A stretch of DNA of 64,000 bases from Macrostomum hystrix (taxonomy: Eukaryota; Animalia; Platyhelminthes): contig CATNEN010000001.1 of the NCBI GenBank assembly GCA_950097015.1, forward strand, positions 15,376,001 to 15,440,000, given 5' to 3'. How positions within the stretch are numbered: position 1 is the stretch's first letter; each line of letters starts with the position of its first letter. The position numbers were made by a program, and so were the translations under genes. The notes beneath the pieces are model-generated. The model was not told the DNA's origin. It saw nothing but the letters and a program-made list of their open reading frames with translations, and ran no database searches. This document shows positions 9,554 to 58,568 of this stretch, piece after piece.

Positions 9554-9804
9554 CTCAACAAAGAACCGAGTAGCAAAGATATAACCGATTTATTGTCGAA
9601 ACGCTGCCAAAATGTATTTGAATTCTTGCAATTGGGATTCTTAGAATTGGGATTCTCAGAACTCGGATTCTAATTCTAATTCTAAGTGCATGTTGTACTA
9701 TAAAACTAATTTCGGAGTGAATTTGCACCCTTAGACAGTCCTAGTTTTCTAGTTTCAGCTGACTGAGATTCCAATGATTTTTGGAAGTACTCACTGATGT
9801 TTGA

Positions 9805-25087: not shown

Positions 25088-28066
25088 TCACAATCCATTC
25101 GTATGGTCAGCCAGCCAGGACCTCAGCGAAGGCAGATTGCTTTCCATCCACTTCACATTGATCCGCACATTCTCCAGGGCCAGCTCCAACGCTCGAGACG
25201 CAGTTCCGAGGGTGTCTTTGTGCAGCTGCTGGAACCGCTCCATCTCCTCGAGTTTCTGCTTGGTGTTGAAACTCTCCAGATTTCTCACAATGTAGGGCAA
25301 CGTAAAAGAGCCAAGACCGCTATTCGAAAGAGAATCCCAATTGCGCTGCAGATAATCCCACATGATTTGCAGACCGTTGGGGTTGCCTGCAACACTTGAG
25401 AACACGGTGGAGGCATCCTGACCTCGGATCTGTTCACTGTCCAGGGCATAGTCCAGGTAGCGGTTGAGGATCCACGGCTCGCTGGTGCAGGCCAGGCTGC
25501 GGATGATGTCATTTTTGATGCCGGGGTGGGACACGGTCTTGCTGTACTCAAACAGTCGGTCCCACACGACCACAAAAGACGTGACCACTCCTTCACAGAG
25601 AACCCGGCGTCGGATGTCCGGACTGATGATCGTGGTAAAATTGGTAAAATTTGAGCTTACGAACTCGCTGAACTTTTGGGTCGCGGCCTCCTCGCAACTT
25701 CGCACACCGTACAGGCAGGCCGATGAGACGATGAGCTCTCGCTTCAGTCGGGTCAGGTGCGTATCGCTCTCCTTGTTGTCGAGTCCGACGTCCTTGAAGG
25801 CACCTTCGAGCAGGTCGCGCATGTAGGCACTCAGAGGACCGTACTCCGGAGACTGTCGGTGGAGCATCGAGTGCAGGTAGCTCATCTTCGAAAGAGCCGA
25901 CTGCCACGGAACCAAGTGGGTCTCGCTCTTCAAGTACTTGGTCATGTTGAGCGGAACGCTGTAGTCCAGGTAGCCTGCGCTGGCCAGAGAGAAGCTGTCA
26001 TCGAGCAGACGGGCTCTGTCCTGCGGAGTGAACACGCTGTGGTTCGACAGCAGCTGTTGGATGAGAGCTTCCCAGTTCGCTAGCTCGTAGTTCACTCTGT
26101 AGAAGCCGAGCGAGCGCAGATTGAGCAGGTACCAACTCGAGCCGGAGTCCAAGTCGAACGTTTGGCTCTTGTCGGCCATCCATTGCACGAATCCTGACAC
26201 ATCCTCCGGAGTACCCGAGGTGAGATTCTCCTTGGTTGCCAAGGTGACTGGGATGATCCACGTGTAGTTGTAGTCACTCTCGTAGCTGGGCTTCTGGCTG
26301 GGGTCGCTGAGGAAGTGGTTCTGGGTCAGTGTGAGCTGGTCTGCACTCCTGGAGCAGTTGAGCACGGGATATCCCATCTGCTTGATCCAGCGGTCCATCA
26401 CTTGACCCACGTCGAGCGGTCTGCCCCACGTTTCGTTGTACTGTCGAGCCAGACTGTCATAGAGAGCAGTGTGGAATGTGTTGCCGTAACTGTTGTCCAA
26501 CAGGTATTTTCCGACTCCTTTCCGGAACACTTCGTCACCCACGAAGCCGTGAAGCATGCGGAGAACAGTGGCACCCTTTCTGTAGGTGATGGTGTCGAAG
26601 ATCTCGTTGATCTGATCTGGATTAAAGACTTCAACGTAGATGGGATGACTCGCACCTTTTGAGTCCACTTCAAAGGCTGCTCTTTGTTCTGTGGGAACGA
26701 ACTGTGCATCAATATCCCATTCTGGGTGCAGATTATTTATGCCGATGTTTTGAACAAAACTCGCAAATCCTTCGTTCAGCCACAGGTCGTCCCACCAGTC
26801 CGGAGTGACCAGATTTCCGAACCACATGTGGGCGAGCTCGTGACTCACAACGCTGCCGATTAGTTGGAAAGTAGCGCTGGTGTCTTTTGTTTCATCATAT
26901 ACTAAAAAACTCTCTCGATAAATGATCAGTCCCCAGTTCTCCATCGCACCTGCGTTGAAGTCGGGAACTGCAGCCTGATCTGTTTTATTCAGCGGGTATG
27001 ACACGTTGAAGTAGGACTCAAAGTGCTGGGTGATGTTCTTGACGGCCTCAAGCGAGTAGTTTGTGAGACTTTTGAACTCGGGTCGAACACAGTTGCGATA
27101 TTCGCGACCCTTGTCGTCCTTGCTGTCTACATAGTCGAATTGAGACACAATGAACGCCAGAAGGTAAGTAGACATGAAGGGAGTAGTCTCAAAGTCCTCC
27201 TTCACTACATGAGCTGAGTCGGCCATCTCGCTAAACCACTGCTCGGCAGTCACGTTGCTTATCTGCTTTGATGGCATGTTGCTGATGGACTTGAAAGACG
27301 CAAGTCTCACGAGGCTGATGTCAAACTTTGCCTTGAATCCAGGCTCATCGAAACACGGAAATGTCTTCCTGGCGTCCGTCGGCTGCAGTTGAGAAGTGGC
27401 GAGGTACTTTGTAACTCCGTTCTCAGTGTAGGAGCTCAGATAGAGACCTCGAAGATCAGACCGAAGTGGACCTCGGAACTTATCGATCTGCAGGACGACG
27501 CTTGAGCTGTTCGCAGGCAGCTGCTCGCTCGTGTCGATGCTGTACCACTGACGCTTGTCGTCGTACACAACGCTCGTGACGGTGAAGTTTATGTTGGAGC
27601 TGTCATCGTAGATCTTTATATCCTGGACCGTCAGGTTGATCCTGTCTGCGTGCAGCTTGAGGTTGTTGGTGCTCTCGTTGACACTGAGCCTCACTCTGAC
27701 GGAGCCGGTGAAGTAGAAGACCGATGCGTTCGTCCCGTAGATGTAGGGCGCCAGGGTGACGCTGTAGTGCACGGGCTTGACGCCAGCCGGCAGTCGGACG
27801 TCTTTCACGAGCGGTGGCGCAGTCGATGGTCCCGGAGTCGCCGGCGGCGGACTGCTCGGAACCGTTGTCGGAGGCGGCGTAGAGGATTGCTCGCACTTTG
27901 GAGCGGTGAAGTGCACGATGAGCCCCACCGCCACCACGGAGACCGCGAAGACGATCGCGAGCAGGACGAGAATCGGCACCGTCAGGAAGAGGCCTTTCTT
28001 GCCCGACCCGCCACTTGCAAGGTAGACGCTGTTCTCGGAGCCCTTGTAAACTGCGTAGCCGCCCAT
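25088..28066 (-). CDS. Aminopeptidase N-like M1 metallopeptidase (type II membrane), intronless, 992 aa
   Basis: N-terminal TM anchor and P/T/S stalk, followed by RLP, DARKTFPCFDEP, MSTYLLAF, GAMENWG, HELAH-x18-E (WLNEGFA), YRKGA and an ERAP1-like C-terminal domain. Confidence 0.95.
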   Translation of the reverse strand: MGGYAVYKGSENSVYLASGGSGKKGLFLTVPILVLLAIVFAVSVVAVGLIVHFTAPKCEQSSTPPPTTVPSSPPPATPGPSTAPPLVKDVRLPAGVKPVHYSVTLAPYIYGTNASVFYFTGSVRVRLSVNESTNNLKLHADRINLTVQDIKIYDDSSNINFTVTSVVYDDKRQWYSIDTSEQLPANSSSVVLQIDKFRGPLRSDLRGLYLSSYTENGVTKYLATSQLQPTDARKTFPCFDEPGFKAKFDISLVRLASFKSISNMPSKQISNVTAEQWFSEMADSAHVVKEDFETTPFMSTYLLAFIVSQFDYVDSKDDKGREYRNCVRPEFKSLTNYSLEAVKNITQHFESYFNVSYPLNKTDQAAVPDFNAGAMENWGLIIYRESFLVYDETKDTSATFQLIGSVVSHELAHMWFGNLVTPDWWDDLWLNEGFASFVQNIGINNLHPEWDIDAQFVPTEQRAAFEVDSKGASHPIYVEVFNPDQINEIFDTITYRKGATVLRMLHGFVGDEVFRKGVGKYLLDNSYGNTFHTALYDSLARQYNETWGRPLDVGQVMDRWIKQMGYPVLNCSRSADQLTLTQNHFLSDPSQKPSYESDYNYTWIIPVTLATKENLTSGTPEDVSGFVQWMADKSQTFDLDSGSSWYLLNLRSLGFYRVNYELANWEALIQQLLSNHSVFTPQDRARLLDDSFSLASAGYLDYSVPLNMTKYLKSETHLVPWQSALSKMSYLHSMLHRQSPEYGPLSAYMRDLLEGAFKDVGLDNKESDTHLTRLKRELIVSSACLYGVRSCEEAATQKFSEFVSSNFTNFTTIISPDIRRRVLCEGVVTSFVVVWDRLFEYSKTVSHPGIKNDIIRSLACTSEPWILNRYLDYALDSEQIRGQDASTVFSSVAGNPNGLQIMWDYLQRNWDSLSNSGLGSFTLPYIVRNLESFNTKQKLEEMERFQQLHKDTLGTASRALELALENVRINVKWMESNLPSLRSWLADHTNGL

Positions 28067-28714
28067 TTTCGTTGTTGAGGCAGTTAAAGAATCACTTTCT
28101 TGTTTTTTACCCTCATTTGACTTTCGGTCAGTGCTTTATATGCATTTCTTTCATATCGGGCCTGCGTGAAATGTCGTTAGCTGGCAAGAGTGAGTTTATG
28201 ACGGCACTGATTTGATAAGATATGTGTTTCTGAGTAGCCTAAATGCTTTAAAGTCACTTTTCTGCGCATTCATGGGCGAATTTTACGAGTGCAAGAAGCA
28301 GTTTTATTTAGAGTCAAGTCTTTGTACGCAGTAGAATTTTACTGATTAAAGGTCTTATTTAACAAAGGATTTATTTTCTTTGTCTTTGTCAGTGCTGACA
28401 ATGCAGACAGTGCTGCGATCTTCAATGTGGCTTGACAATTTTTTATCGATTCGAAGGATCAGGAAATTTTCATTTACATGTTTTTAATATTTCTGCACTG
28501 AGATAGTTTCAGAGTCCGAACAAAGACCGTCAGTGTTTCAAGAAGCTGCTGCTGCTGCTGCTGAACGAAATCGTTCACTACTTTGCACTGATCACCTTAC
28601 TTGAATATTGATCTTTCGTTTATCATTAGGTTGTTAGGTCAACAGAATCATTGGAGCAAAACCTAATATAACCTGATATAGCCTAATATAGCCTAAAAGT
28701 ATATCAACAGTTTG

Positions 28715-36045: not shown

Positions 36046-37984
36046 GTTCGTAGAGTCCACATGCGGCACGTTGCTCTAGTCGATTGCGCTATATTAACAT
36101 TATTTTGTGGGCGGAACGTTGCCGTCAGTCATGTTTGCCCAGGTCCAGGTCCAAAGGTCCAGAGTGGCCATCATTTCGGTTTGTGTTTTTCTTATCTGAG
36201 CTTTCTCTTAAAACAAGAGTTCGCCTTGTCATTAGGATGCGACAGAAAGTTTTATAATTAATTCTGTTGATCAAAATGACTCTCCAAGATCGTGATCCAG
36301 TGAATGGACAACGAGTCAAGGCGGGAAAACTGTTGTTTTAGTTGAAAAATTGACATCAAATATGCAGAAAAACTGGCCTATTTTCTGGGACGCGATTTTC
36401 TGCGTTTCAGCTTTCAGACGAATGCGAACCTCGTGTATCCATTATTCTAGATACTCGGATAAGCTATATTTTTTGCTATATTATGTATCGCGAACTATGC
36501 AGTTATGTATCTATTAACGGCCAAACTATGTATCTAGGGGCTGGCTTTGGCTTCCGACCTAAGTCATCAGGCAGTTACTCTGAGGGACAGGTGCCACAGG
36601 TGTCATGCGCTAATATCCTTTTGAATAGCACCGCTCACACACCCACCCAACTCCACTTTTGGTATACAAGTCGGGACTTTCAATTGTTTTTAAGCAATGA
36701 CTAAGTTTACTACCTTACTGTCTCTCTTACGCCATGTATATTAGCGAAGGATACAAAGTGCAAGTGCACGATTTCAACGCAATCTGGTAGTTTCACTGGC
36801 ATGCTCACTTGTCCTCATAACTTGTAACTCATCCGGCAGCGTCAGCCTCAAAGCTGGGGTTCTCCTGACTTCAATTTAAATGTGCAACAGTGGACAAAAT
36901 CCACTGTTGAGAGGTCAAGTCAGCTTGAGGAAAGAGACCAAAGGGGTCATGCTGGGCTTCGAAAAGTTCATTGAAGTCAAGGATTGGACTATCTGGTTGA
37001 CGCGGCTGGTTCAGGACTGTTGTGACGAGTTCGTGAAGCCCCTTGGGGATACGTGGCAAGTATCAAAGAAATGACAGTATAGAAAAATATATCCGAAATA
37101 AAATAGTCGAATATGAGATCGAAATAAAACAATAAATTCCTCACAATAGACTACTGTCAGTAGAAATAGAACCAATCTCTATATGAACGTCTGAAAAACT
37201 GACGTAATAGAATAGTGACTTAACACGTAAGCATCTAAGACAGCAAGAAGGCCAGATTTCTCTACTTATCATTGACTTGCTGTATATTGACAGGTGCAAA
37301 TTCAATACAGCCAAAGACTATTTCTATTGCGGGCAGGATTTCTGCTCACCTGTATATCTGTGCATTGAGACGGCATCTACTACTCATTGACTTCTCATTG
37401 AAGATTGGCTGTATGATACAGATGATACAGACACTCATTGGCTACTTGTCATTGACTTGTTCCGATTATTTGTAACTCGTTGCATTTAGGCGGATATATT
37501 GACAGGTTCAAATTCAAGTATAATAAATAATGTACTATTAATGGCAATATTGGCTTTACTTTTCTTTTATGTACGAGTGCTCGTACTGCATTCAAGGAGA
37601 AACAGTAGCAAAACAGTAGCAAAACCTATATACGAGCGTATACAGACGCGGTATTTGCAAGTCGCTGCTTTCTTTTTTTGCGATATTTCGTTCTGCAAGC
37701 CGAAATCTTAGTATTTCAACAATTTTTTGAGTCGGGACTCATTGTCCAGTTTGGCGACATGCTGAAATTTCTTAAACGCGTCCTTCATCATTTTTGACGC
37801 GTTTGGCGGAGCCGTTTCTTCGTCGTTGGCAAAGCGCCATCGATGCAGCCAGGCACTGCTGGTCGGGGTGTCGAGGAACTGCACATGCACTTTCGGCAGT
37901 GAACCAATGCCTCTGGAGCAGCTTTTGGTTTTGGCCGGCAGACTATTGCCGGCCACCCAGCTCGCCCTTGTATGGCCAGGTCGG

Positions 37985-38600
37985 TGCTGACTAGCACGTC
38001 GCTGCTGACTAGCACGTCGCTGCTGACTAGCACGTCGCTGCTGACTAGCACGTCGCTGCTGACTAGCACGTCGCTATTAGCCGGAGCAGAAGTAGCAGCC
38101 CGTGCAGCCAGAGCAGCCCTTGCAGCCGGAGCAGCCCTTGCAGACGGAGCAGCCCGTGCAGCCGGAGCAGCCCTTGCAGCCGGAGCAGCCATTGCAGAAG
38201 GAGCAGCCCGTGCAGAAGGAGCAGCCCTTGCAGAAGGAGCAGCCCGTGCAGAAGGAGCAGCCCTTGCAGAAGGAGCAGCCCTTGCAGAAGGAGCAGCCCG
38301 TGAAGAAGGAGCAGCCCGTGCAGAAGGAGCAGCCCTTGCAGAAGGAGCAGCCCTTGCAGAAGGAGCAGCCCTTGCAGAAGGAGCAGCCCTTGCAGAAGGA
38401 GCAGCCCTTGCAGAAGGAGCAGCCCTTGCAGCCAGAGCAGCCCTTGCAGAAGGAGCAGCCCTTGCAGCCAGAGCAGCCCTTGCAGCCGGAGCAGCCCTTG
38501 CAGCCGGAGCAGCCTTTGCAGAAGGAGCAGCCCCCATATCTGGGGCATCGCTGCTGGCTGGGGCATCGCTGATGGCTGGGGCATCGCTCCTGGCTAGGGC
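37985..38600. repeat. 18-bp repeats inside the last exon of the YR gene (AAPSAR / SDVLVS linker)
   Basis: GCAGAAGGAGCAGCCCTT and GCTGCTGACTAGCACGTC units. Confidence 0.9.
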
Positions 38601-40370
38601 ATCGCTCTTGGCTTTTTTTCTTGAACTCCGTATTCTCTCCGGTCATGTCGACGCGGCGCTTTTGCCAACGACAGGCCAAAGTCGTAGGCGCGGCATCTGG
38701 ATCGCTTGGCGCCCCAGCTGCCGATGAGCCATCAGTCGCCGTCTCATTGATCCTGTCCAGGATGCTGTCCAGATCGTTGGCTAAAGGTAGCAAGCAGGGG
38801 TGAGTTTACTAAAATATTCAATCATTTTAATGAAGATTGGTAATCTTCTTTCTATCCTGAAACAAGTATTTTTGTGTCACAATATTTTTTAATACTATTT
38901 TTAGAGCAAGCAGTGCATTTCTTAGTATGTAGAAATTTGATAAGCATTATGGGAAGTGCATTTTTGAAGTGAAATTTAAGGCTGATTATACTTGTGTCTT
39001 GATTTCTTATGCAACAAATTGAGTCCTCGCAGTAAGAACCCGTTCATACGGCCGTGAGCCAATTCAGGCCGAGAGTCAAAATATATTTAAGTTTAACAGA
39101 GCGATAAGGATGGGGGGTTGGCGGTACGATAACAAGAGTGCGCGACTGAGGGTAGGAGAGGAGGCTAGAACGTGAGCGGCGGACCAATCAGAGAGGAGGA
39201 AAGAAAGAAAGGATAGAGAATAGAGGATAGAGATCAGCCGCAGAGATAACGAGAGAGAAAGAACTAGATTGAACTGGACGATGTAAACAAGAAAAGTGCA
39301 GAGAACGAAAGAGTGAATAGAGGACAGAAGGCAGAGACGAAAGTCGCGACAACTTGTATTTAAATATTTTAGAACACATTAATGCTTCTATAGTTGTATT
39401 CGACGATTGGCTTTATAAAATATTAGTAAATATTAAAACACGTTGTGACAAAAGTTAAAAATTTTATGTGAACTCACTATCGCCGTTTATCCGCTCGCCC
39501 AGGGTAGCAGCAGTGGTGGCGAGCTGGGCGCTGTTCAGCGGTGCTGGAGCATTCAGCAGGCCTTCGGGCACTGCGGAGCCCTGAGCCAGCAGCCTCTTCA
39601 TGAGAGCTCGGCCAGCCGCACTTCTCTTCGCAGTTTGGGCCTAAGATGGTTTAAAAGATGGTGTAAAATTTTTTTGCTGATTCGCTGTATTCGCTCAGAG
39701 AAAACTTTGTATTGAAATAGTAATACTAGGTCAGGCGGAATTACTATTCAATAAGGCTGCGAGAACGAATCTAAATATAAGATGCTCATTATTAGTATAC
39801 CAGAAGTTTTATTAAAAAATACATTATCATGCTTTCAAAAAAATTATTGCAGTTTAACAGTTGCAGTAGTAAAGAATAAACTACCTGGTAAAATTGCCTT
39901 TGAACACCTTCAGTGTGGCCTTGATGGTCTGTCATCAGTCGCTGCTCCTCGGCTGTGGGGTTTTCGAAGCCCATGGTCTCCAGCCACTTTCTGAACTTAG
40001 AGACCGTAACATTGGCGAGCAACGGCGAGTAGCGCTGGCGATATTGATAAAATAGCCGATCGAATGACCCATAGGGAAATTCGAGCGCCAAATGTTCGTC
40101 AGCGGGTCTGTCAGCAAAGCGCTGGGCAAATACCTGCATGAGCAGGTCGGTGCAGCATGTCACACTGGCCCAGGCTTGTCCGTACTTTCCTGAGCTCTTG
40201 TGCGACTTGACTTTAAGTGGCTCGTTCGGGTTCTTCAACCAGCGGCGTGCATCCGATATTTTGCAGAACGAAGCAACGCCCTGGCGGTTCGCATTGCCAT
40301 CACCGAAGCAGATGGCCATTCCAATGGCGAGGAAAATTACAGTCCTGTGTAGGTTTAGACAAAAAAGTAT

Positions 40371-40480
40371 GAGTGCCAGTTCTAAATCGAGTGCCAGTTC
40401 TAATCGAGTGCCAGTTCTAATCGAGTGCCAGTTCTAATCGAGTGCCAGTTCTAATCGAGTGCCAGTTCAATCGAGTGCCA
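40371..40480. repeat. 17-bp repeat (TAATCGAGTGCCAGTTC) in intron 1 of the YR gene
   Basis: About 6 units. Confidence 0.9.
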
Positions 40481-43087
40481 CTTAAGACAAGTGGCATTTA
40501 GCTCGTACTAATTAGTAATATATTTTAATTCAGAAAAAATTTACATGTCTTTTGTTGATCTCGCTTCTTCCAAGACCTTTCCTTCATTAAAAAAACCGCC
40601 TTTATTTGCTCTCCGGTGAGCAATTTTTCTTCTTGGCGGTCGTAGAGGTCGGCATAATATGCTGCCTTTGCACCCATCGAGCTTGCTGTCCAATTTTTTG
40701 TCGCCTGTCTGTATGAAGTCAGCTGGTCGACTAGGCCATTGTCGACGATCAGCTGGTACCTTCTGGTAACAAGGAAGTTACCAACTTTTTCCAGTGCCGA
40801 CACGGATTGCTTCAGAATAGAGTACGTAAGCGCGTCTAGGTAGGCGCTGATGCTGTCTCGCAATTCTTCTCTTACTAGCTGTTCGAATGACCGAATATCT
40901 AGGGCCCTCATCAGTCGCCGAAGATAGCATCGAATCTCGCGCACCGTTGCTGGCTTCTTCCTTCCGCCGAGGGAGCTGGCAAGAATCAGGCACAGTGCTT
41001 CGATGTCCGCACTCGACGGATGCTCTTCAATAGGCGGTCTGGCAGTTTTCGCCACCGCTTTGGCCCTAGCTTCGGTCAGCCTTTTCTGCTTCTCCGCCTG
41101 CGCTTCCTCGGCGTGGCTGTTGCGGATATGGCTGGATAGCAGATTGGCACTGTTGCGCCATTCACCGCAGAATGGGCACTGCTTGGCGCTTTCGGATAAC
41201 GGGCCAGCGGTTTTTGAATGCGTACGCATCTTCACCGCAGCGCGCAGTGCTTTAAGTGCCTTCTTTGCACTTGCATGAGCCGGAATGCCATCTTCCTCCA
41301 GCTTGCGCTTAGTTGATTCTAAAAGACTGGCGAGCACTTTGCGCAGGTTGTCGGCGAAGCGCGATTTGTTAATCGGATGGCAATCGCCGAAGGGGCTGCT
41401 GCCCAGCACGCGGCTTCTTGCTTGTTACGACTTCTGCAGCAGCCGATTGATGTAACTGGACTGCAGGAGCAGATGGCTCCTCCGATGCCATGCCGTCTTC
41501 AGCAGCCGAATTCGGCAGATCGGCTTGAGGAGCAGGCGGCTCAATACGCTGGCCGAGCAGACTTTCAATAAAAGCTTTATTCATTTTTGAGAATTCTAAA
41601 ATTTTATTTATTTTATTTCAACTCAGTGGGGGTTCACTGGGATTTTAATAAGAAAATAAAAGCAAATAAAAAATGTTCCCATTGGTCCATAAAATAAATA
41701 AAACTAATTACTCATCAGATTGTAAGGACATTCAACTTGGTACACCAGTAAAATTTTACTTTCAAACAAAAACTGCGCAACCATCAGTTTTTCGCCAACG
41801 CATCATTAAGGTGCGAAAATGGAAACTCAAGCTAAGATATTTTCAAAAACAATATCCTTTTTGCTAAAATTTGCGAATTACTGTCTTAAATCCCAATGCA
41901 CAGATATACAGATGAGCAGAAATCCTGCCCGCAATAGCAGTGTCTTTGGCTGTATTTCAAAATAAAAATTCTATTTGTCCAGCGGGATGCTTTCTTGTTT
42001 GCTTAATTCATGAGCATACAATGTCCTTTGTTTGCGAATAGTGATTTTCGAGTAGTAAGTTTGGTTTGTGTAATCTTGATTTAATTGTGGTAGAGAATTG
42101 TGTTCCCGTCTACTGGTCTTTGTTGCACACTGGATATTTCTATTCTAGTATTTCTAGTTCATTTCTACACTTGGCGCGATCGCCCCTTTTTGTGAAAAAA
42201 GGCAGGGAAGGAGGGGAGGAGGGTCAGTGAAAGAAAGGATGTGGTCCTATTGGTCCAGTCCGACTCGTAGCCACGAACATAGTTTTTGTGCCTAGCCCAA
42301 GCAGTGCTCGAACTCGACGATGAATTCTAGTTAAGGAGAAACTAGATATACCCATAATTGGCAAAAGCAAGGCAAAACTGTCTACTGTCGTAAGTAGCGT
42401 AGTTGACTCCGGGCTTTGGCAGCAGTGGATGGAACAGTCCAGCCTCCTATCCGATAATTGCGGAAATGCTATGAGGCGAAGCGGTGGTTGCGCCACCACC
42501 CAGTGCGCTTGCGTTGCCGCCGCAGACATTTGGAGACGTGGCTGCCCGGAGTTTACCGCTCGAAATTTATTATTTAGTTCCTGACAAGCCTTAATCGATT
42601 CTTAATAATATTAAGTCTTAAAGTCTGAGGTCTTAAGTCAAGTCTTAAGCCAAAGTGCAATAGTCTTAATCAAATTTTAGTCCTAATATATTTGCAGTTC
42701 GTTAATTCATGCCCACTCTGCATAATTCATACTTTTCTACCATTATTCATGCTTCACCTTGATAATTCATGCTACCCCTTCGGTAAAAAATGATACCCTC
42801 TTTAATAATTCATTATGTTGTCTTGTAAAAATAGCTTTAGCCTCAAAGTATTGTTATTCCCTGAAAATCTCATACTATCTCTTCAAGACAATACAAAACT
42901 TCCTAGATATCTAATGCTTTCCCACAAAAACTCCTTGCAATTTAGTTGATATCTCATGCTGCTATCCATTGATATCTAGCTCCATATTCCTTAGTTTCAT
43001 TTTCTCCTCCGAATTATTATGCTTTCAAAATATAAAACAACACAGATTGCTTCCATGCTCGAAAAAACGTATATTTAAAAAATAATG

Positions 43088-43400
43088 TAATACTATAGCA
43101 TGGTTTCCGAGGTCTTTAATGTCATGGCCGAGGGCGCGAAGCGCCTCGAGGCCATAGACATTAAAAACCGAGGAAACCGTGCTATAGGGTTATTGTAGTA
43201 CGATAATAGTTTCCCATCTATTTTAAAGATTTCTCTAAAAATGGATCAGTCCGAGGACGCGAAAGACCGCCTGACTGGGGAAACACCCATTAAAGACCGA
43301 TGTCTATATTTCTTATGTCTATTCTTATATGAGTTTAACCATTTTTTGGAATACCCTAGGGAAATCCCAGGGACGCGAAAGACCGCTTTTATCGTACTAC
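43088..43400. mobile_element. ~313-bp non-autonomous hairpin element (MITE-like)
   Basis: Absent at the paralogous site ~60075. Flanked by an AATG duplication. ~95-bp palindrome at 43093-43187 and a 15-bp IR ATTGTAGTACGATAA/TTATCGTACTACAAT. Confidence 0.75.
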
Positions 43401-45535
43401 AATGCTATTAGCTAGGATTAAAATATATTATCTCCTAGTTTTTAATCTAATAACGATTTCAGCTATGCTCGAAACACTTTTCTGAAGTTTCGAAAAATGC
43501 TAACAGCTACACATGCTTAAACAGTCTTCATTTAGTTTGGAATCGAAAAACATTTGAAGAAAATACTCGAAAAATGTTAGAACTTAAAATAAATACCGCT
43601 TTTAGCTGTGCTCAACATATTTTCATCTAGTTGTGAATCTGATAACGCTTGCAGCTATGCTCAAAAAACCTTTCCTTAGTTAGTATCGAAAATCACATAC
43701 TGCTACACTCGAAAAAATTTCAATTCTCTTCTCACAACGAGTAGAGTAATGATTAAGCTGACTAATATTTGCTTTCACAGTATCTAATTAAAAGCGCTTA
43801 AACCTAAAATGTCTAATAAAGAAAAACAAAAAAATAATATTTTGTTTTTACAGTTCAAAGAAAAGAGAAAAAAGAAACATTATCAAAACAGATGCAGTAA
43901 ATTGACCTGCATTCGGCAAAATAATAAAAGTACGAGTACTTTGCTTCGAAGCTAGATTACAAGAAAGCGGAACAATAGGATAGATAGGAGAAGGAGAGTT
44001 CTCGCTTGCATTGAGCATCATAAAAGCCCAATCATTGAAATCAGCAACGAGCTTACGTGCGTTTTACTTGTTCAAATCTAAACGCTAAATCAGCTAAGAG
44101 ACCTATACCACTATCGCAGTGACAGCAGTGACACAATCCCATTCAACTGGCGGTATCGGGCCATCTGTTCTGTGCTACTAACGCACGCGCGGACGAGAAA
44201 AAGCACCGATGCAATCTCAAGACAACTGAGAGTTTTGAACCCTATTATAAAAGATGAAAAACTAACCTTAAAAGTATAGCAGAAAATGACAGCTTTTTCG
44301 AATATTTAATGCCTTTAGAATGAAGCAAATGATTAGAAATTTAACGTGTACCATCTCGAAAAGAATGCATATCTTGTAGAGAAAAAATCGCAAAAATCGC
44401 ACAACGCGTTCGCTAGAACAACGACAAGACTTCTTTTTTACATTGATTGAATGGGCATGTATATAAATAGTTTTAAATTCATTATAAATGACGAATAGGA
44501 ATTTTATGCCCGCCTCTGGCGCTTTCTACTCAAAATTACAATTTTCTTTAAAATAAATTCTACAGAAACAATGGCACGAAAATGCCAAAGCTGTCATTAT
44601 GCTCTTGTAATTATTTTAGTCATTTAAGGAAATTAATGTTAAGGAAATCACAAATTATTCACAGTGTTCGTTAGTAAATCATATTTTTCTGCTCTAATTT
44701 TATCATTACGGTTAGTGTTACGCATTTGTAATACAAGCGGAACTCCTCCTTCGGAGGAGATTGAAGGGATAAAACTCCCATCGCCTGAATTCCAGCAAAG
44801 ATAACAATACTAAGAGAAAATCCAGACCTTTAAATCAGCTGAACTCAATGCATATTACATTTCAAGACAACGATTCTCCAGTCCAGCTCAACTTAATTCG
44901 TATGAGCACATTACTCTCTCCGCCAAGTCAGAATTACCTACACTATAAAAAGCAACATCATTGAAATGTAAACGTTTTATATTTTCAAATCCAATCGCTT
45001 GTAGTGGCCTTAATTCGCGAAACTTCTGTACGATATTCAATCAGCCAAAGGACCAATATCACTATCTCCATATATAGACGCACGTATGGGTAATAAAAGC
45101 AGTGCCGCAATCCTATTCAATTGGCGGTATATGGCCTTCTGTTCTACTAACGCACGCGCGGACGAGAAAAGGCACTGATGAAATCAATTAAAACTGAGTG
45201 TCGGGCCCTATTCTAAAGATGATAAACTATCTTTAAAATTATTGCAGAAAATAACAGCTTTTTTAATATTTAATGCCTTTGGGATAAGGCAAATGCTTAG
45301 AAATTTAACATGTACCAACTCGATAAGAAGGCGTATCTTCTAGAGAAAGAATCGTGAAAATCGGACAACGCGTTCGCTACCGAGTTTGAGTCAGAAGTGA
45401 CACTTTTGGCAGCACTGACGTCAGTTGCTATTTAAAAAACAACTTGATTACATCAAGTTCGGTTCTGGCTAAGTCCCGAAACTGACCTAGCCTTCCCTCC
45501 CGTTCAAAGTACAAAAAACGACACAAAGTACAAAC

Positions 45536-45735: not shown

Positions 45736-45829
45736 CATATGTTCTCCAATATCGATTCGTTTAATAATTTTTCTACTTTTCTTGTTAACCAATTACACAT
45801 ATTTATTCGCAAAGTTTTATGTTTTCTCC

Positions 45830-47190
45830 TGGAAATCTCATTCTTTCTCCTGGAAATCTCATGCTAGATATTGATGAAATCGTGATATTCCCTAGATATC
45901 TCAAGCTTTTCTCCACGTATTCCATACCATTTTCCTGGTGTCTCATGCATGCTATCCATTGATATCTAGCGCTATATTTTTAATTTCATGTCTTCATTCG
46001 AGCTAATATGCTTTTAAAATAGAAAAAAATGACGATTGCTTCCCTGCTAAAAACGCTTAATTAACAAGGAACTAAATACGAATTCCGCGATTCGTCACGA
46101 TATTTTTTTCTCCTAGCTTTGAATCTAATAACGATTGCAGGAATGCTCAAAAATGTGAAAATTTATAATGAATAACGCTTTTAGCTGTGCTCAACACATT
46201 TTTCTAGTTCTGAATCTGAAAAAACTTGCAGCAATGCTCAAAATGCTCAATCTTTCCTAGTATCGAATAAAAATTGCTCCTACACTCATAAAACGTATAA
46301 TATTTTCATACAGCGAGAAGAGCAATAACAAAACTAACTAATATTTGCCTTTTTCGGAAGCTAATCTAAAGCGCTTACTATTATATTAATACTCGAACAA
46401 GAATTTCCACTAAAAATAATAAACAAGAACTTAAATTTTCAACTGTTGATGACACAAGATTAAGAGAAAAGGAAGCAGCAAGAAAAATGAAGCTGAAATT
46501 GGACCTGCATTCTGCAAACTAATAAAAACACCTTAGCTAGATGATAATAAAGCGACACAATGATCGAAGTCGAGACAAGGTTTCACAATATCTAGGCTGC
46601 AGTTTTCATGGATAGAAATGAGGAGAGGTCTTGCTAGCATTGAGCATCATAAAAGCCCAATCATTGAAATCAGCTATGTACGCTTTACTTATTCAATTCA
46701 ATCGCCTGATCAGCAAAGAGACCAATATCACTATCGCAATATACGAGAGTATAAACGTACGTACGGTTGCTAAAAGCAGTGACGGGCAAGAAAGGCACCC
46801 ATGTAATCTAATAAGACTGACAGTGTCGGGCCACATTCTATAGATGACTTTAAAAAGTATAGAGTACTAAAATATCTTTAAAGTTTATGTTTTCAAATAT
46901 CATAAACCTTTAGAATGGAGGAAATTAGTAAACTTGTACCATGTAAATAGATCATCTTGTTTAGAAGGCGCATCTTTTAGATAAAGAATCGCAAAAAATC
47001 AGATAACGCCTTCGCTAGAGCAAGGATAAGACAATTTTTAATTGATTGAATCAATTTTATTATAAATGACGACTAGCAATTTTATGCCACCTTTAAATCA
47101 GCTGAACTCAATGCATTCAATTTTAGGACAACGAATTTCCAGGCAACGACTTCCCGATTTGTAAGCACATTACTCTCTCCGCCTAGTCAG
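45830..47190. repeat. Older, diverged copy of the AT-rich segment ~42870-44930
   Basis: Shared blocks include GCTATCCATTGATATCTAGC, GCATTGAGCATCATAAAAGCCCAATCATTGAAATCAGC and TAAATCAGCTGAACTCAATGCA. A further partial copy lies at ~45040-45380. Confidence 0.75.
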
Positions 47191-47592
47191 AGGTGCGAGT
47201 GAAAATAAATTAATTTTGCGTCCCCTGCGCCGAGAAAGTTGATGCTGTCATTCATCACATCAACTGACCCTCCTTAGTAATACAGCACAGCATATTGCTC
47301 TCTTCGCCCAGTCAGAGGTGCGAATTTCAATAAATAAAATATGAGCACTCCTCTCCTCTCCTCTCCCCCCAATCAGCGCTAATTTTTTACATTACGCTCG
47401 AAAAGGCGACTGCAAATTCAGCCACTGCTAATCAGTATTTATATATTACAAATAACTTTGTCGCAAACATTCAACTGACTCACTGACTATCTCGCTAAAA
47501 ATAAATCTAAACTCTACACAATTCTACACAAAAAACTTGTATATATATCTAACAACGTTCTAATTTTCGTGCACGTAAATCATTGCGAAAAA

Positions 47593-50364
47593 ATGGGCGG
47601 CTACGTAGTTTACATGGGCTCCGAGACTAGCGTCTACATCGGGGCAAATGGCGGCTCGGGCAAGAAAGGTCTTTTCCTGACGATGGAGATTCTCGTCCTG
47701 CTCGCGCTCGTCTTCCTGGACCCCGTGGTAGCATTGACGACGGTTCCGACAACGGTTCCGAGCACTCCAGGACCATCGACGGCGCCGCCGCTTGTGAAAG
47801 ACGTCCGACTGCCGGCTGGGGTCAAGCCCGTGCACTACAGCGTCACGCTGGCGCCCTACATCTACGGGACGAACGCATCGGCCTTCTACTTCACCGGCTC
47901 CGTCAGGGTGAGGCTCAGTGTCAACGAGAGCACCAACAACCTCAAGCTGCACGCAGACAGGATCAACCTGACGGTCCAAGATATATTTATCTACGATAAG
48001 AACTCCTATGAAAGATTCACCGTCTCGAGCGTAGTGTACGACGACAAGCGTCAGTGGTACAGCATCAACATGAGAGAGCCGCTGCCTGCGAACAGCTCAA
48101 GCGTCGTCCTGCAGATCGACAAGTTCCGAGGTCCACTTCGGTCCGATCTTCGAGGTCTCTATCTGAGCTCCTACACTGAGAACGGAGTTACAAAGTACCT
48201 CGCCACTTCTCAACTGCAGCCGACGGACGCCAGGAAGACGTTCCCGTGTTTCGATGAGCCAGGATTCAAAGCAAAGTTTGACATCAGCCTCGTCAGACTT
48301 GCGTCTTTCAAGTCCATCAGCAACATGCCGTCAAAGCAGGAAAGCAAAGTGGCTGCCAAGCAGTGGTTTAGCGAGATGGCCGACTCAGATCTTGTAGTTA
48401 AGGAGGACTTTGAGACTACTCCCATCATGTCTACTTACCTTCTGGCGTTCATTGTGTCTCAATTCGACTATGTAGACAGCAAGGACGACAAGGGTCGCGA
48501 ATATCGCAACTGGGTTCGACCCGAGTTCAAAGGTCTCACAAACTACTCGCTTGAGGCCGTCAAGAACATCACCCAGCACTTTGAGTCCTACTTCAACGTG
48601 TCATTCCCGCTGAATAAAACGGATCAGGCTGCAGTTCCCGACTTCATCGCAGGTGCGATGGAGAACTGGGGACTGATCATTTATCAAGAGAGTTTTTTAG
48701 TATATGATGAAACAAAAGACTCTAGCGCAATTTTACAAGAGATCGCCATCACTGTGAGCCACGAGCTCGCCCACATGTGGTTCGGAAATCTGGTCACTCC
48801 GGACTGGTGGGACGACATCTGGCTCAATGAGGGATTCGCCAGTTTTGTAGAAAACATCGGAGTGCACAATCTGCATCCCGACTGGGAGATCGATGCTCAA
48901 TTCGTGTCAAAAAAGCAGAGTGCGGCCTTCGATCTCGATTCAAAAGGCTCGAGCCATCCAATTTATCTTCAAGTTTATAATCCGAGTCAAATCAACGAGA
49001 TCTTCGACACCATCACCTACAAAAAGGGCGCCACCGTTCTCCGTATGCTTCACGGCTTCGTGGGTGACGAAGTGTTCCGAAAAGGAGTCGGAAAATACAT
49101 GTTGGACAACAGTTACGGCAACACATTCCACACTGCTCTCTATGACAGTCTGACTCGACAGTACAACGAAACGTGGGGCAGACCGCTCGACGTGGGTCAA
49201 GTGATGGACCGTTGGATCAAGCAGATGGGATATCCTGTGCTCAACTGCTCCAGGAGTGCAGGCCAGCTCACACTGACCCAGAACCACTTCCTCAGCGACC
49301 CCAGCCAGAAGCCCAGCTACGAGAGTGACTACAACTACACGTGGATCATCCCAGTCACCTTGGCCACCAAGGAGAATCTCACCTCGGGAACTCCGGAGGA
49401 TGTGTCACGATTCGTGGAATGGATGGCCGACAAGAGCCAGACGTTCGACTTGGACGCCGGCTCGAGTTGGTACCTGCTCAATCTGCGCTCGCTCGGCTTC
49501 TACAGAGTGAACTACGAGCCAGCGAACTGGGAAGCTCTCATCCAACAGCTGCTGTCGAACCACAGCGTGTTCACTCCGCAGGACAGAGCCCGTCTGCTCG
49601 ATGACAGCTTCTCTCTGGCCAGCGCAGGCTACCTGGACTACAGCGTTCCGCTCAACATGACCAAGTACTTGAAGAGCGAGACCCACTTGGTTCCGTGGCA
49701 GTCGGCTCTGTCGAAGATAAGCTACCTGCACTCGATGTTCCACCGACAGTCTCCGGAGTACGGTCCTCTGAGTGCCTACATGCGCGACCTGCTCGAAGGT
49801 GCTTTCAAGGACGTCGGACTCGACAATAAGGACAACGAGACGCACCTGACCCGACTGAAGCGAGAGCTCATCGTCTCATCGGCCTGCCTGTACGGTGTGC
49901 GAAGTTGCAAGGAGGCTGTAACGGAAAAGTTCAGGGAGTTCGTGAACTCAAATTTTACCAAGACCATCAGTCCTGACATCAGACACCGAGTTCTCTGTGA
50001 AGGAGTGGTCACATTTATGGACGTGTGGGACCGACTGTTTGAGTACAGCAAGACCGTGTCCCACCCCGGCATCAAAAACGACATTATCCGTAGCCTGGCC
50101 TGCATTCAGGAAAAGATCCCTGGCTCCTTCAATTTTTCGACATTTATTAACAACCTGGCCGACTTAAACATCGAGCAGAAGGTTTTGGAGATAGAGAGGT
50201 TCAAGGCGCAGCACAAGGACGACCTGGGCGCTGCGACGCGGGCCATGGACCTCGCCCTGGAGAACGTGCGCATCAACGTCAAGTGGATGGAGCGCAACCT
50301 TCTGGCTGTTCGCAGCTGGCTGGCCGATAATGTGAAACAGTTTGAAGAGGGGCGCACGATGTGA
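47593..50364 (+). CDS. Second aminopeptidase N-like paralog, intronless, 923 aa; shortened anchor/stalk and ~52-aa in-frame deletion in the C-terminal domain
   Basis: ATG at 47593 (MGGYVVY). GAMENWG, HELAH-x18-E and YKKGA are intact. Long stretches are near-identical to 25088-28066. Confidence 0.9.
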   Translation: MGGYVVYMGSETSVYIGANGGSGKKGLFLTMEILVLLALVFLDPVVALTTVPTTVPSTPGPSTAPPLVKDVRLPAGVKPVHYSVTLAPYIYGTNASAFYFTGSVRVRLSVNESTNNLKLHADRINLTVQDIFIYDKNSYERFTVSSVVYDDKRQWYSINMREPLPANSSSVVLQIDKFRGPLRSDLRGLYLSSYTENGVTKYLATSQLQPTDARKTFPCFDEPGFKAKFDISLVRLASFKSISNMPSKQESKVAAKQWFSEMADSDLVVKEDFETTPIMSTYLLAFIVSQFDYVDSKDDKGREYRNWVRPEFKGLTNYSLEAVKNITQHFESYFNVSFPLNKTDQAAVPDFIAGAMENWGLIIYQESFLVYDETKDSSAILQEIAITVSHELAHMWFGNLVTPDWWDDIWLNEGFASFVENIGVHNLHPDWEIDAQFVSKKQSAAFDLDSKGSSHPIYLQVYNPSQINEIFDTITYKKGATVLRMLHGFVGDEVFRKGVGKYMLDNSYGNTFHTALYDSLTRQYNETWGRPLDVGQVMDRWIKQMGYPVLNCSRSAGQLTLTQNHFLSDPSQKPSYESDYNYTWIIPVTLATKENLTSGTPEDVSRFVEWMADKSQTFDLDAGSSWYLLNLRSLGFYRVNYEPANWEALIQQLLSNHSVFTPQDRARLLDDSFSLASAGYLDYSVPLNMTKYLKSETHLVPWQSALSKISYLHSMFHRQSPEYGPLSAYMRDLLEGAFKDVGLDNKDNETHLTRLKRELIVSSACLYGVRSCKEAVTEKFREFVNSNFTKTISPDIRHRVLCEGVVTFMDVWDRLFEYSKTVSHPGIKNDIIRSLACIQEKIPGSFNFSTFINNLADLNIEQKVLEIERFKAQHKDDLGAATRAMDLALENVRINVKWMERNLLAVRSWLADNVKQFEEGRTM

Positions 50365-52320: not shown

Positions 52321-52546
52321 TGTAGAGGATCAGAACTCTAGCATATATTTGTGGGTAGCTCTTTAGCTTGCGAGCAGAAAGTTAAACAACAAAACTCGCG
52401 CGACAAGTGCCTTCATCTAAGTCGCAACTGTGCGTCAGACTAAGGACCATAGACGATAACTAAGTCAACAAGGGTTTGGGGAAACGATGGCGATCAAGTG
52501 GCCTGGCAAAGTACTGGCCGAAATCTTAGCTTTTAGGTCCGCTACA
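52321..52546 (-). repeat. 3' LTR
   Basis: Direct repeat of 56427-56652, adjacent to the PPT. Confidence 0.95.
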
Positions 52547-52567
52547 TCACCCTCCCCCAGCACGGCG

Positions 52568-55500
52568 CTACGATGAGAAGTGCGTCGGGCGACAACGACG
52601 GGGCGGCAGGAAACGGCGGTCCGCCGGTTCGCCTGTCACTAGGTGGGTCCTTGGCGGTCTGGCAAACGGGTGGTGCTCCGTAGTGGTCTCCATCCCCGGG
52701 TCAGGTAGAGGGTGCGTTGACGGAACGGACGAGCGGGTGGGTCGACCTCTGCGCCGGATGTCCGGCGGTGGGACGGGATCGGACGGGTCTAGGACCGCTG
52801 GCTTTAGCCGGTCCACGGAAACATGGTCCTGACTCGTGCCGAGATCGAGAAGGAAAGTCTTGGTGTAGCGCTGAAGGTCTCGGAAAGGTCCGGTGTATGG
52901 TTTCTGGAAAGGCGCGCGGTAGCCATCCCGGCGGATGAACACAAAGGTGCATGTAGCCAGGGCGCCCAACTCCGATGCCTGTCGGTTGCCATGTGGGACG
53001 GTCGGCTGAGGACGGAAAGCTTGAATGGCGGCGCGCAGGTTGGTGAGGAACGTGCTGTGCAGTGCTGTTGGTGGGCCAACCTGTATGCACTCGCCAGGCA
53101 AAAGCAACGGGGCGCCATACACCAACTCGGCCGACGACGAGTGAAGGTCCTCTTTGGGTGCCGTCCGGATGCCCAACAGGACCCACGGCAACTCGTCCGT
53201 CCAGTTCGGACTGGAGAGGCGTGCCATGAGTGACGCTTTGAGCTGGCGATGGAAACGCTCGACTAAACCGTTGGACTGCGGGTGAAACGCTGTGGTGTGA
53301 TGCACGTGCATGCCGAGCAGTTTGGAAACGGCGGTCCACAGTTCGGAGGTAAAATTCGGGCCCCTGTCGGTGGTGATGTCACTGGGGACTCCGAATCGAG
53401 CGATCCAGGTAGAAATGAAAACGGATGCACAGGCGCTGGCGGACGTGTCAGTGATGGGTATTGCCTCAGGCCAGCGCGTAAAACGGTCGACCATCGTCAG
53501 CAGGTGCGTGAACCCGTGGGACTGCGGCAGGGGACCAACAAGGTCGATGTGGACGTGGGCGAAACGGCTGGTCGGTACCGGGATTATGTCCGGCGTTGTC
53601 GTGTTATGCCGATGGACCTTGGCTTGTTGGCACGGAAGGCAACAGCGAGCCCACTGGCTCACGTCTCGGTTGAGACCTGGCCAGACGAATTTAGCTGCGA
53701 TGAGGCGACGAGTGCTGCGGATGGAGGGATGGGCTAATCCGTGGACCGCATCGAAAACGGCACGACGGAAACTCACTGGCACCAACGGGCGCGGGCGCCC
53801 GGTCGACATGTCACAAAGCAATTCCAAATCAGGATGCATGGTGACGAGCTCGAGCTTGAGACTGGGAGTCGCCGTCGGCATTACCAGCTGGTGCTGCTCT
53901 TTCGCCAATGCCGCATAGTCCACTCCTGGCAACAATGTGTGCACACTTGCTACTGTGCAACGGGATAGAGCGTCTGCAACTGAGTTGTCCTTACCGGCGA
54001 CGTGTCGAATGTCCGTGCTGAACTCCGACACTGACGCTAGATGCCGCTGTTGTCGTGCGGACCAAGGATCCGATAACTTGGACATCGCGGATGTCAGCGG
54101 CTTGTGATCCGTGTAGATTGTGAAAACGCGTCCTTCGGGGAAATAACGGAAATGCCGTGTGGCCAAATATAGCGCCAGTAACTCCCGGTCGAACGCACTG
54201 TATTTCTGTTCCGCGGGACGCAATTGTCGGCTGAAAAAGGCGAGTGGTTGCCACCCGCCAGCAATTCGCTGTTCCAAGACCGCGCCAACGGCCGTGTCCG
54301 AGGCGTCGACGGTCAGGGCCGTCTGCGCAGTGGGCCTAGGGTGTGCCAGAAAAGTGGACTGAGCTAGGGCCTGTTTGGTGGCGGTGAAAGCATCGAGTAG
54401 ACTCGTACTGGCAATGGCGGCGTAAATGGGGCGTAGCAACTGGGCGGCATGTGGAACAAATCGGTGGTAGAAGTTCACCATACCGGCGAATTCTTGCAAG
54501 CCTTTGATTGTGGTCGGAGGTGCAAACCTGACGACCGCATCGACCTTGTCTGGCAGAGGCCAGGCGCCGCTTTGATTGATTCTGTGGCCCAAGAAATCGA
54601 TCTCGGTACGTCCGAACTGGCATTTGGCCGGATTCAACAGCAGACCGTTGTCGACTAGTCGGCGGAACAAGGTGCGCAGGTGCTCCACGTGCTGCGTTTG
54701 GTCGCTGCTAGCCACTAGGAAATCGTCCAAGTAGGCGAAAACGAAAGGCAAATCCTGGCTGATAGAGTCCACGAGTCGCTGGAATGTCTGTGCAGCGTTC
54801 TTGAGTCCGAAAGGCATGCGGAGGAACTCAAAGAGTCCAAACGGTGTGATGATAGCCGTTTTAGGGATGTCAATTTCCGCCACTGGTATCTGGTGGTAGC
54901 CTCGGACAAGGTCAATCTTTGAGAAAATGGTACTGCCGGCCAGGTGCGCGGAAAAATCCTGAATGTTCGGTACCGGGTAACGATCGGGTACAGTGGCGCC
55001 ATTGAGCCGTCGGAAATCGCCGCAGGGACGCCAGCCTCCAGACGACTTCGGCACCATGTGGAGCGGTGATGACCAGGGGCTGTCGGACCGACGAATGATG
55101 CCGAGCTGTTCCAGGGTACGGAATTCCGCTTTAGCTATGGCCAACTTGTCGGGTGCTAGGCGGCGTGCGCGGGCATGGGTTTGGGGGCCTTGCGTCTGAA
55201 TGAAATGTTCGACGCCGTGGCGTGGTTGTGCCCGTTGAAAACTCGGCTCCGTGAGCGACGGAAACTCCGCCAGCAATGTACTGTACGGGTCGCGGGCGAC
55301 GGCGGCCGCCAGCCGAGGTGCTGTGCCGCAACCGAGGAGCAGATGTGTGCTGGCCAGTGAGTGGGAGTCCAGTAGGCGGCGGTTAGGTAAGTCGACCAAC
55401 AGTCCGTGGTGTAACAGGAAATCAGCGCCGATGAGGGGGCGCGACACTTCGGCAAGAATGAAAGGCCAGGTGCAGGTTCGAACGCCAAGGTCGAGAGTGA

Positions 55501-55722
55501 TGGTGCGACTGCCAAATGTACGGATCGGGCTGCTGTTGGCGGCGAGGAGCGGTGGTCCAGGGGTGATTGTACGCGCATCGACCCCGGATGCAGTAAAAAG
55601 ACTCACTTCTGCACCGGTATCCACTAGAAAACGCCGACCTGTGTGTATAAGCAAATAAGCAAAATATTGTTGTTCTCGCCGGTCGTCGAGGTGTTTATTG
55701 ACGACCGGCCTGGCCGTTTCCC
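52568..55722 (-). CDS. pol: Gypsy Pol (PR-RT-RH-IN), probably expressed by -1 frameshift
   Basis: PR LVDTGA; RT YLDD; RH VDASD...DRELLA...TDHKPL; IN HHCC and D-D35-E (HIDLVGP, TTDRG, GLVERF); GPF motif. Slippery G_GGA_AAC at 55722-55716 in the gag/pol overlap. Confidence 0.95.
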
Positions 55723-56390
55723 TGGAACTTGCAGGGTGGCTCGCAACGGCGGGCCTTGGCACCAAACTTGCGATGGAAGAAACACAAGTCCTGTTGCTCG
55801 TCAGAGGGTGGATGTCGGATGGGTCGACGTCTGTCGTCGCGGCGGTGTTGCGCAGCAGCGACTAAGGGCAGTTGTTCAGCCAGCTGGGCGGTGGCGATCA
55901 CCGGCTGGGGGCGGCAGGCCCACAGCTCGTCGGCACGTTGTGCGACCGCCCTTGGATCGGCGAAATCGGCGGACACCAGCGCCAATCGGATGTCGCTTGG
56001 AAGCTGTTGGCGGAACAACTCCTCAAACAGCAAGCAGGGCCGGTGGTCGCCGAGCAAAGCGAGCATTTCGTCCATGAGCTGGGACGGTTTCCTGTCGCCC
56101 AACCCCGACACGCTCAATAACTGGCTGGCACGCTGCTGTCGTGAAAGGCTGTAGGTGTTGAGAAGGCGGGCCTTTAGCTTTTCGTATTTCTGGGCATCGG
56201 GGGCGTTCTCGAGCACATCTAGGAGACGCTCTGCTGTTTGCTGGTCCAATGCCGCCACTAGATGGCAGTACTTAGTCGTATCTAGGGTGACGTTCCGGAG
56301 GCTAAACTGCGCCTCGGCTTGGATGAACCAGGCGCGTGGTTGTGAAGTCCAAAACGCTGGAAGCTTCACGGTGACAGCAGATTCGGTCAT
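55695..56390 (-). CDS. gag: Gypsy Gag
   Basis: VKLPAFW...[18 protein letters not shown] and a C-terminal [18 protein letters not shown] knuckle. Likely ATG at MTESAV. Confidence 0.9.
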
Positions 56391-56426
56391 CCTCAAGCAG
56401 TCGGTTGAGGACGTCGGGCTCATCAA

Positions 56427-56652
56427 TGTAGAGGATCAGAACTCTAGCATATATTTGTGGGTAGCTCTCTAGCTTGCGAGCAGAAAGTTAAACAACAAAA
56501 CTCGCGCGACAAGTGCCTTCATCTAAGTCGCAACTGTTCGTCAGACTAAGGACCATAGACGATAACTAAGTCAACAAGGGTTTGGGGAAACGATGGCGAT
56601 CAAGTGGCCTGGCAAAGTACTGGCCGAAATCTTCGCTTTTAGGTCCGCTACA
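56427..56652 (-). repeat. 5' LTR
   Basis: Direct repeat of 52321-52546, followed on the minus strand by the PBS and gag. Confidence 0.95.
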
Positions 56653-58029: not shown

Positions 58030-58560
58030 AGTCTTAAGCCATAGTGCAATAGTCTTAATCTACGAGATTTGCAGTCTTAATCTATTTGCAGTCTTATTCT
58101 ATTTGCAGTCTTAATCTATTTGCAGTCTTAATCTATTTGCAGTCTTAATCTATTTGCAGTCTTAATCTATTTGCAGTCTTAATCTATTTGCAGTCTGTAT
58201 CTATTTGCAGTCTTAATCTATTTGCAGTCTTAATCTATTTGCAGTCTTAATCTATTTGCAGTCTTAATCTATTTGCAGTCTGTATCTATTTGCAGTCTTA
58301 ATCTATTTGCAGTCTTAATCTATCTGCAGTCTTAATCTATTTGCAGTCTTAATCTATTTGCAGTCTTAATCTATCTGCAGTCTTAATCTATTTGCAGTCT
58401 TAATCTATTTGCAGTCTGTATCTATTTGCAGTCTTAATCTATTTGCAGTCTTAATCTATCTGCAGTCTTAATCTATTTGCAGTCTTAATCTATTTGCAGT
58501 CTTAATCTATTTGCAGCCTTAATCTATTTGCAGTCTTAATCTATTTGCAGTCTTAATCTA
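58030..58560. repeat. 17-bp minisatellite (CTATTTGCAGTCTTAAT), continuing at 59540-59645 after the mariner
   Basis: Period of 17, ~30 units left of the transposon. Confidence 0.95.
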
Positions 58561-58568
58561 CCCATCTA

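Follow-up and report, generated by a model that had tools for sequence, protein, structure and literature searches.

The name Crypton is used for any eukaryotic DNA transposon that carries only a tyrosine recombinase (YR), and the group is non-monophyletic (Krysinska et al. 2026, PMC13465315). According to Kojima and Jurka (2011, PMC3212892), the animal lineages CryptonA and CryptonI lack terminal repeats, and CryptonV, a Repbase group (Kapitonov and Jurka 2012, as cited), is reported to target microsatellites (PMC8869645, PMC4455052, PMC5753468). Nimaviral YRs combine a C2H2 finger, a SAM-like core-binding domain and a YR domain, with some of their genes being multi-exon; they are described as distinct from Cryptons, DIRS and Enterprise, and decapods have related YRs that are not part of viruses (Kawato et al. 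2023, PMC10871703). Here we describe an element of about 5.1 kb at positions 37045–42186 of a 64,000-nucleotide stretch of the flatworm Macrostomum hystrix (contig CATNEN010000001.1; hereafter the window). With a probability of roughly 0.7, we consider it an ageing, probably non-functional single-gene YR transposon that likely excises as a circle and recombines into sites resembling its own joined ends.

Judged from its sequence, the element appears to work like a Crypton in the broad sense, its YR family belonging to none of the Crypton and Starship groups that Pfam defines. Like the broad-sense Cryptons (PMC3212892, PMC13465315), it has a single YR gene in which introns are allowed, no reverse transcriptase (RT), a short repeat at its junctions and a proposed circular intermediate. 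Cryptons are described in these sources without terminal inverted repeats, whereas the element has imperfect 30-bp terminal and 92% subterminal inverted repeats; CryptonA and CryptonI are described without a C-terminal domain. The element further differs in its N-terminal C2H2 finger and in a direct repeat of which the empty target has no intact copy. Neither the DUF3504-type YR of CryptonA and Glomhopper nor the C-terminal GCR1_C domain of CryptonF was found: DUF3504 has no match in the window exons (E ≤1), in six homologous proteins described below (E ≤0.5) or in the protein P0011, and GCR1_C has none in the same set. The RT-RNase H gene of DIRS, Ngaro and VIPER has no corresponding frame in the element. 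CryptonV, compared by name and target remark only, is likewise an animal YR-only transposon with a target-site preference, but the target here is not a microsatellite.

The nimaviral YRs, as described, share the domain layout of the element; they belong to viruses with large genomes, and their targets are telomere repeats or 28S rDNA, whereas the element is 5 kb long, has one gene and lies in a dispersed repeat (PMC10871703). Starships resemble it in their low copy number, their direct repeats and a YR made up of a core-binding and a catalytic domain, and some of them have terminal inverted repeats, but they are fungal and span tens to hundreds of kb with cargo, as against 5.1 kb and one gene here (PMC11162782, PMC9156397); DUF3435 has no match in the window exons or the six homologues. 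A literature search whose scope left out Repbase, Kojima's 2020 review and most subscription journals returned no description of this YR family, and nothing related was found for Macrostomum with tyrosine recombinase or Crypton. The proposal of the earlier note on this DNA that the element represents a distinct Crypton-like family is supported with respect to the Pfam-defined groups, outside which the YR falls.

Insertion site and ends of the element

In a window self-comparison, positions 36461–37038 and 42196–42698 (copy A of a host repeat) are 90% and 89% alike to 57025–57565 and 57578–58092 (copy B), and about 5.15 kb in copy A has no counterpart in copy B. This bears out the earlier reading of about 5.1 kb as present in copy A and absent from copy B, and the junction letters are as quoted there. 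The features of the insertion are as follows.

37045–42186, minus strand: YR-only DNA transposon with ends GGGG...CCCC and TT on either side, present in copy A only
36461–37037, plus strand: host repeat, left flank of copy A (window self-comparison)
42196–42698, plus strand: host repeat, right flank of copy A (window self-comparison)
57561–57595, plus strand: empty site in host-repeat copy B, with the core GCCC-AAT-GGG at 57568–57577 (sequence letters, motif scan)
37038–37044, plus strand: GCCCCTT, left copy of a 7-bp direct repeat, made of host GCCCC and the central TT; empty sites have AA at this place
42182–42188, plus strand: GCCCCTT, right copy, made of the element end GCCCC and TT; the host bases that follow deviate from the empty alleles
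37045–37074, plus strand: left imperfect terminal inverted repeat, about 30 bp (anchored alignment to the right end)
42157–42186, minus strand: right imperfect terminal inverted repeat (anchored alignment to the left end)
37304–37370, plus strand: left arm of a subterminal inverted repeat, 92.5% over 67 bp against 41891–41956; a candidate arm-type binding site
41891–41956, minus strand: right arm of the subterminal inverted repeat, pairing with the left arm
37262–37517, plus strand: short direct repeats in subterminal position (families D5 and D6; three copies are 18 bp and two are 23 bp long), clustered in the left end

The copy-number and allele data come from four public runs of one study (X1–X4) that match the stretch; X1 is a possible source of the window and is not independent of it. 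In X1, the element ends are single-copy and are crossed by single unbranched contigs (depth 88.8 and 86.7), and the depth of the element is about 87, the level of a single contig, as against 128–575 in the flanks. Two differing X1 contigs skip the element; one corresponds to copy B and the other to a further allele, the second empty form (GCCC-AAG-GGG). Three X1 contigs leave 42199 leftward into sequence that is not part of the element. With a single filled copy and two or more empty forms, insertion is the favoured reading. Thus, 37045–42186 is an insertion into one copy of a low-copy host repeat and not a deletion in copy B, in agreement with the earlier note. The host repeat is found in three partial copies in the window (36091–44378, 45820–47191 and 56946–61101) and gave no Pfam match in the two frames tested.

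We then investigated the ends. GCCCCTT occurs on the plus strand of the window at 37038 and 42182 only. Sharing of such a heptamer is weak evidence by itself, as at least 7 bases are common to 127 of about 5000 random pairs of 26-bp windows. The empty sites do not contain this repeat: they read GCCC(C)-AA-(T/G)GGG, as against TT at the filled junctions, so that a clean empty site with a target-derived 7-bp repeat is not supported. The terminal inverted repeat score, obtained by anchored alignment from GGGG at 37045 and CCCC at 42186, was equalled at none of 3314 control positions, and the 67-bp subterminal inverted repeat is placed 230–330 bp inside each end. However the boundary is drawn, the two ends joined via TT read GCCCC-TT-GGGG; this symmetric core is also that of the empty target GCCC-AA(T/G)-GGG, where only the centre is different. 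The motif GCCC-N2-3-GGG, picked after the fact, occurs at two sites on both strands of the 64 kb (the filled left junction and the empty site), with about 5 expected in shuffles. A target that mimics the joined ends except at the centre hints, from a single insertion, at mismatch-tolerant integration. A folded single-strand intermediate was also considered, but we place no weight on it: the joined ends gave folding z values of −5.7 (top strand) and −2.8 (bottom strand) against mononucleotide shuffles, and any inverted repeat folds in this way.

The recombinase gene and its relatives

The element contains a single minus-strand gene with four exons and GT..AG introns.

40545–41584, minus strand: exon 1, with ATG 41584, a C2H2 finger at about 41178–41113, a core-binding domain and donor 40544 (or in-frame donor 40576) (family-profile match, ATG frame)
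39885–40344, minus strand: exon 2, YR catalytic domain with R 40286, K 40199, R 39992, H 39917 and Y 39890 (alignment, fold search)
39478–39640, minus strand: exon 3, flanked on either side by a GT..AG intron that X3 contigs skip
38077–38780, minus strand: exon 4, entering an 18-bp minisatellite, stop at 38079 (joined to exon 3 in an X3 contig)
38995–39351, no strand assigned: solo long terminal repeat (LTR) of 357 bp in intron 3, TGTC..GACA, with a 5-bp target duplication (ACTTG); a later insertion (X1 depth about 10,000 as against 87; loose ends at 38995 and 39351)

The gene was previously read as one spliced gene with a C2H2 finger and YR motifs, and these are present: the motifs NANR, SHKS, SKFRK, QGH and FY, and a finger that matches Pfam zf-C2H2_4 with E 0.02, below the cut-off. 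A fold match of the 40344–39885 exon had been set beforehand as a test, and YR-fold or topoisomerase IB chains take the top 26 of 50 rows in the fold search with the exon-2 model (best match XerA: Z 7.7, root-mean-square deviation (rmsd) 4.0, 135 aligned residues). The full-length homologue P0002 shows a C2H2 finger followed by core-binding and catalytic domains. Its fold search gave Z values up to 12.1, and both domains together match XerH (Z 11.6, rmsd 5.2, 289 aligned). Residues 98–212 of P0002 match the integrase N-terminal domain 3nrw (Z 9.1, rmsd 2.6, 97 aligned) and the lambda core-binding domain (Z 7.6). Window exon 1 scores 45 bits against this part of the homologue profile, the best of 200 shuffles reaching 4.5, and the core-binding-like region suspected earlier is thereby supported. 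On these models, the catalytic exon is predicted to have a tyrosine recombinase fold, with a core-binding domain ahead of it.

Against 1.84 billion representatives, the exon-2 query found six proteins at E ≤0.001, of which the five long ones are 27–36% identical and one is a Macrostomum lignano hypothetical protein; a profile search added one further homologue. Residues R20, K49, R118, H143 and Y152 are invariant in all six aligned sequences, their catalytic roles being assigned by motif order and not by assay; in the HxxR of exon 2, S replaces H at 40001. Intron-free homologues with open frames exist, and a spliced member of the same YR family, with intron positions different from those of the window gene, is found at 27–2383 of a 2.5-kb JGI metagenome contig (L001). 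The word-based homologue search with exon 2 returned none among the longer proteins, P0005 found only itself, and few proteins from word-based searches mean that the family size is undersampled. The family profiles found nothing useful among PDB sequences. P0011 has a sub-threshold Phage_int_SAM_5 match (E 0.0009), PHROGs gave weak matches only (E 0.001 or worse, several over the zinc-finger region), and the phage records contain no match to P0004. In the Atlas, the best whole-protein clusters are animal, and clusters with similar features are found in chordates, arthropods and cnidarians. This suggests a wider animal YR group, a part of which may already be named in Repbase.

Frames of at least 150 amino acids in the element are the YR exons and others over the minisatellite only; thus, as stated earlier from the letters, no RT, DDE transposase, polB or capsid frame of that size is present. 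X3 contigs that are 96–98% alike to the window skip 244 bases that are exactly intron 2, and the skip at intron 3 amounts to 697 bases, one base at the junction being altered. Splicing of both introns is thereby shown in a close relative; no spliced contig covers intron 1. The type label of X3 ('DNA?') is a guess, so that its contigs without introns may be transcripts or intron-less copies, and there is no RNA dataset among the public runs listed for the stretch. The loose ends beside the solo LTR in X3 resemble what we take to be a tRNA primer-binding site. One X4 contig lacks 839 bases at 37835–38675, and with them the minisatellite, but does not differ from the window in any other way; the skip has GC..AG on the plus strand and 4 shared bases, and could be an antisense splice or a deletion allele.

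We also examined the state of this copy. The frame from ATG 41584 shuts near 41370, the first ATG of the main frame is at 41229, and exon 1 is GC-rich. Donor 40544 fits the spacing in the homologues (147.9 and 145.3 bits, as against 134.7 for in-frame donor 40576) and is out of phase with exon 2. Evidence for a break near 41405 is modest, local scores being higher in three of five homologues and equal in two. The X1 contig over this stretch shows no difference from the window. The closure of the ATG 41584 frame, the out-of-phase donor and the identical X1 contig together make two frame breaks probable; by this reasoning, the frame of exon 1 is probably broken near 41405 and 40592. Translation from 41229 in combination with donor 40576 could conceivably still give a shorter open product. 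A second, 98% identical copy in X1, also found in X2, covers exon 2 and short intron borders only (39860–40414); seven of its eight listed exon-2 differences change the protein, and one creates a stop that also occurs in X2 and X3. In the spliced X3 variant, two of the seven differences are stops. The element family is small and decaying, not caught in the act, and the window copy is probably ageing and non-functional. Given the single-copy ends, the probable exon-1 frame breaks and the stops in relatives that are 97–98% identical, a recent or intact copy is not supported.

Proposed movement of the element and alternative origins

Known YRs suggest, by analogy, how the circle, the binding sites and the strand exchange might look. 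The core-binding and catalytic domains would bind the inverted 30-bp ends, each of which would supply one half of a core site, and the subterminal repeats may be arm-type sites to which the C2H2 finger binds. Excision would produce a circle with a TT-centred junction. Integration would then proceed by paired strand exchange of the Cre/Int type into a look-alike core, with no true target duplication. The landing site resembles the joined ends, which makes movement as an excised circle likely.

Several observations weigh against this picture. Only one filled site is known, and at 80–85% likeness X1 contains no second copy with the same ends and other flanks. No circle junction was found among the contig joints listed. 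On the right side of the element, the host letters are not those of the empty alleles, so that the right junction fails to rebuild the empty allele, although the flanks close to it show substitutions at only 7 of 332 and 14 of 377 columns; thus, the junction changed during insertion or later, and copy B is no clean pre-insertion allele. On the protein side, all six aligned sequences have S or T in place of the H of HxxR, exon 2 has no sequence-level match to Pfam YR families or the PDB, and its fold scores are middling (Foldseek E 1.3; model pLDDT 68.5). No homologue was seen with ends of its own, the L001 contig being only 2.5 kb long.

Terminal and subterminal inverted repeats are typical of DDE elements, and TT stands beside both ends. 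The YR gene could therefore be cargo of a non-autonomous inverted-repeat element moved in trans by a DDE transposase, with TT as a 2-bp target duplication. We find this improbable, since the empty sites have AA and not TT, the inverted repeats are imperfect to an unusual degree, DDE elements have no need for a target that mimics their joined ends, as it does here, and the sole gene is an integrase that has kept its catalytic residues. Even less probable, in our view, is a domesticated host YR gene that other repeat copies lost by deletion. Single-copy ends, three introns and a spliced relative in X3 would fit such a gene, but at least two different empty forms exist, the window copy probably has frame breaks, and the relatives from X1 and X3 carry the protein-changing differences and stops described above.

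The element might also be what is left, namely only the integrase and the ends, of a larger virus-like or cargo-bearing element of the nimavirus, Polinton-like or Starship type that integrated by means of a YR. This is the least improbable of the three alternatives but still unlikely. Its layout of C2H2, SAM-like and YR domains is that of nimaviral integrases, some of them multi-exon (PMC10871703), the exon-2 features are akin to unnamed viral clusters (0.95–0.97), and those of P0004 to DUF3435 clusters (0.90–0.91). On the other hand, both ends are present around a single gene, three viral-contig scans returned no locus (one reported a confirmed stretch without a locus), and the best whole-protein Atlas clusters are animal. 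All BFVD matches have E >0.001, and no nimaviral protein is named among the 50 rows listed, a result that is still compatible with kinship.

Returning to the YR transposon that moves as a circle, the TT of the junctions and the AA of the empty sites allow two readings, between which one insertion cannot decide. The target in copy A may already have had TT, in line with the microhomology model put forward for Cryptons and Starships (PMC13465315). Alternatively, strand exchange by the enzyme may proceed despite mismatches in the overlap, as is the case for IntDOT (PMC2817482). The CTnDOT-type integrases, which recombine with mismatched overlaps and need identity only beside the cut, come from bacterial conjugative elements, and their likeness to the element is a mechanistic one (PMC2817482). 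A bolder proposal, which we regard as possible but doubtful, is that the element represents an undescribed group of animal YR transposons with C2H2, core-binding and catalytic domains and an S/TxxR motif, lambda-like core-plus-arm ends, and mismatched integration of TT into AA as in CTnDOT instead of exact microhomology.

Elsewhere in the window, whose gene content is that of an animal, two intronless M1 aminopeptidase genes, 90% alike and inverted, are located at 25088–28135 (minus strand; Pfam match for this one) and 47479–50364 (plus strand). An LTR retrotransposon at 52321–56652 on the minus strand lies directly upstream of host-repeat copy B and contains gag-like and RT-RNaseH-integrase frames and 226-bp repeats that are 98.7% alike. 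An intronless 357-amino-acid frame at 8516–9589 (minus strand) resembles seven-helix receptors, as judged by eye.

The movement of eukaryotic YR-only transposons is still modelled on bacteria, and their ends are hard to define. The value of this element is limited by its being a single, probably dead copy. For this element, both ends, two empty sites and the circle junction to be expected can be given with single-base precision. Together with the intron-free homologues that have open frames, this makes the circle model testable in an animal family outside Pfam, as well as the question of whether the crossover requires homology. If the bolder proposal is true, the family would provide a compact animal integrase with a short, predictable CCC-nn-GGG target.

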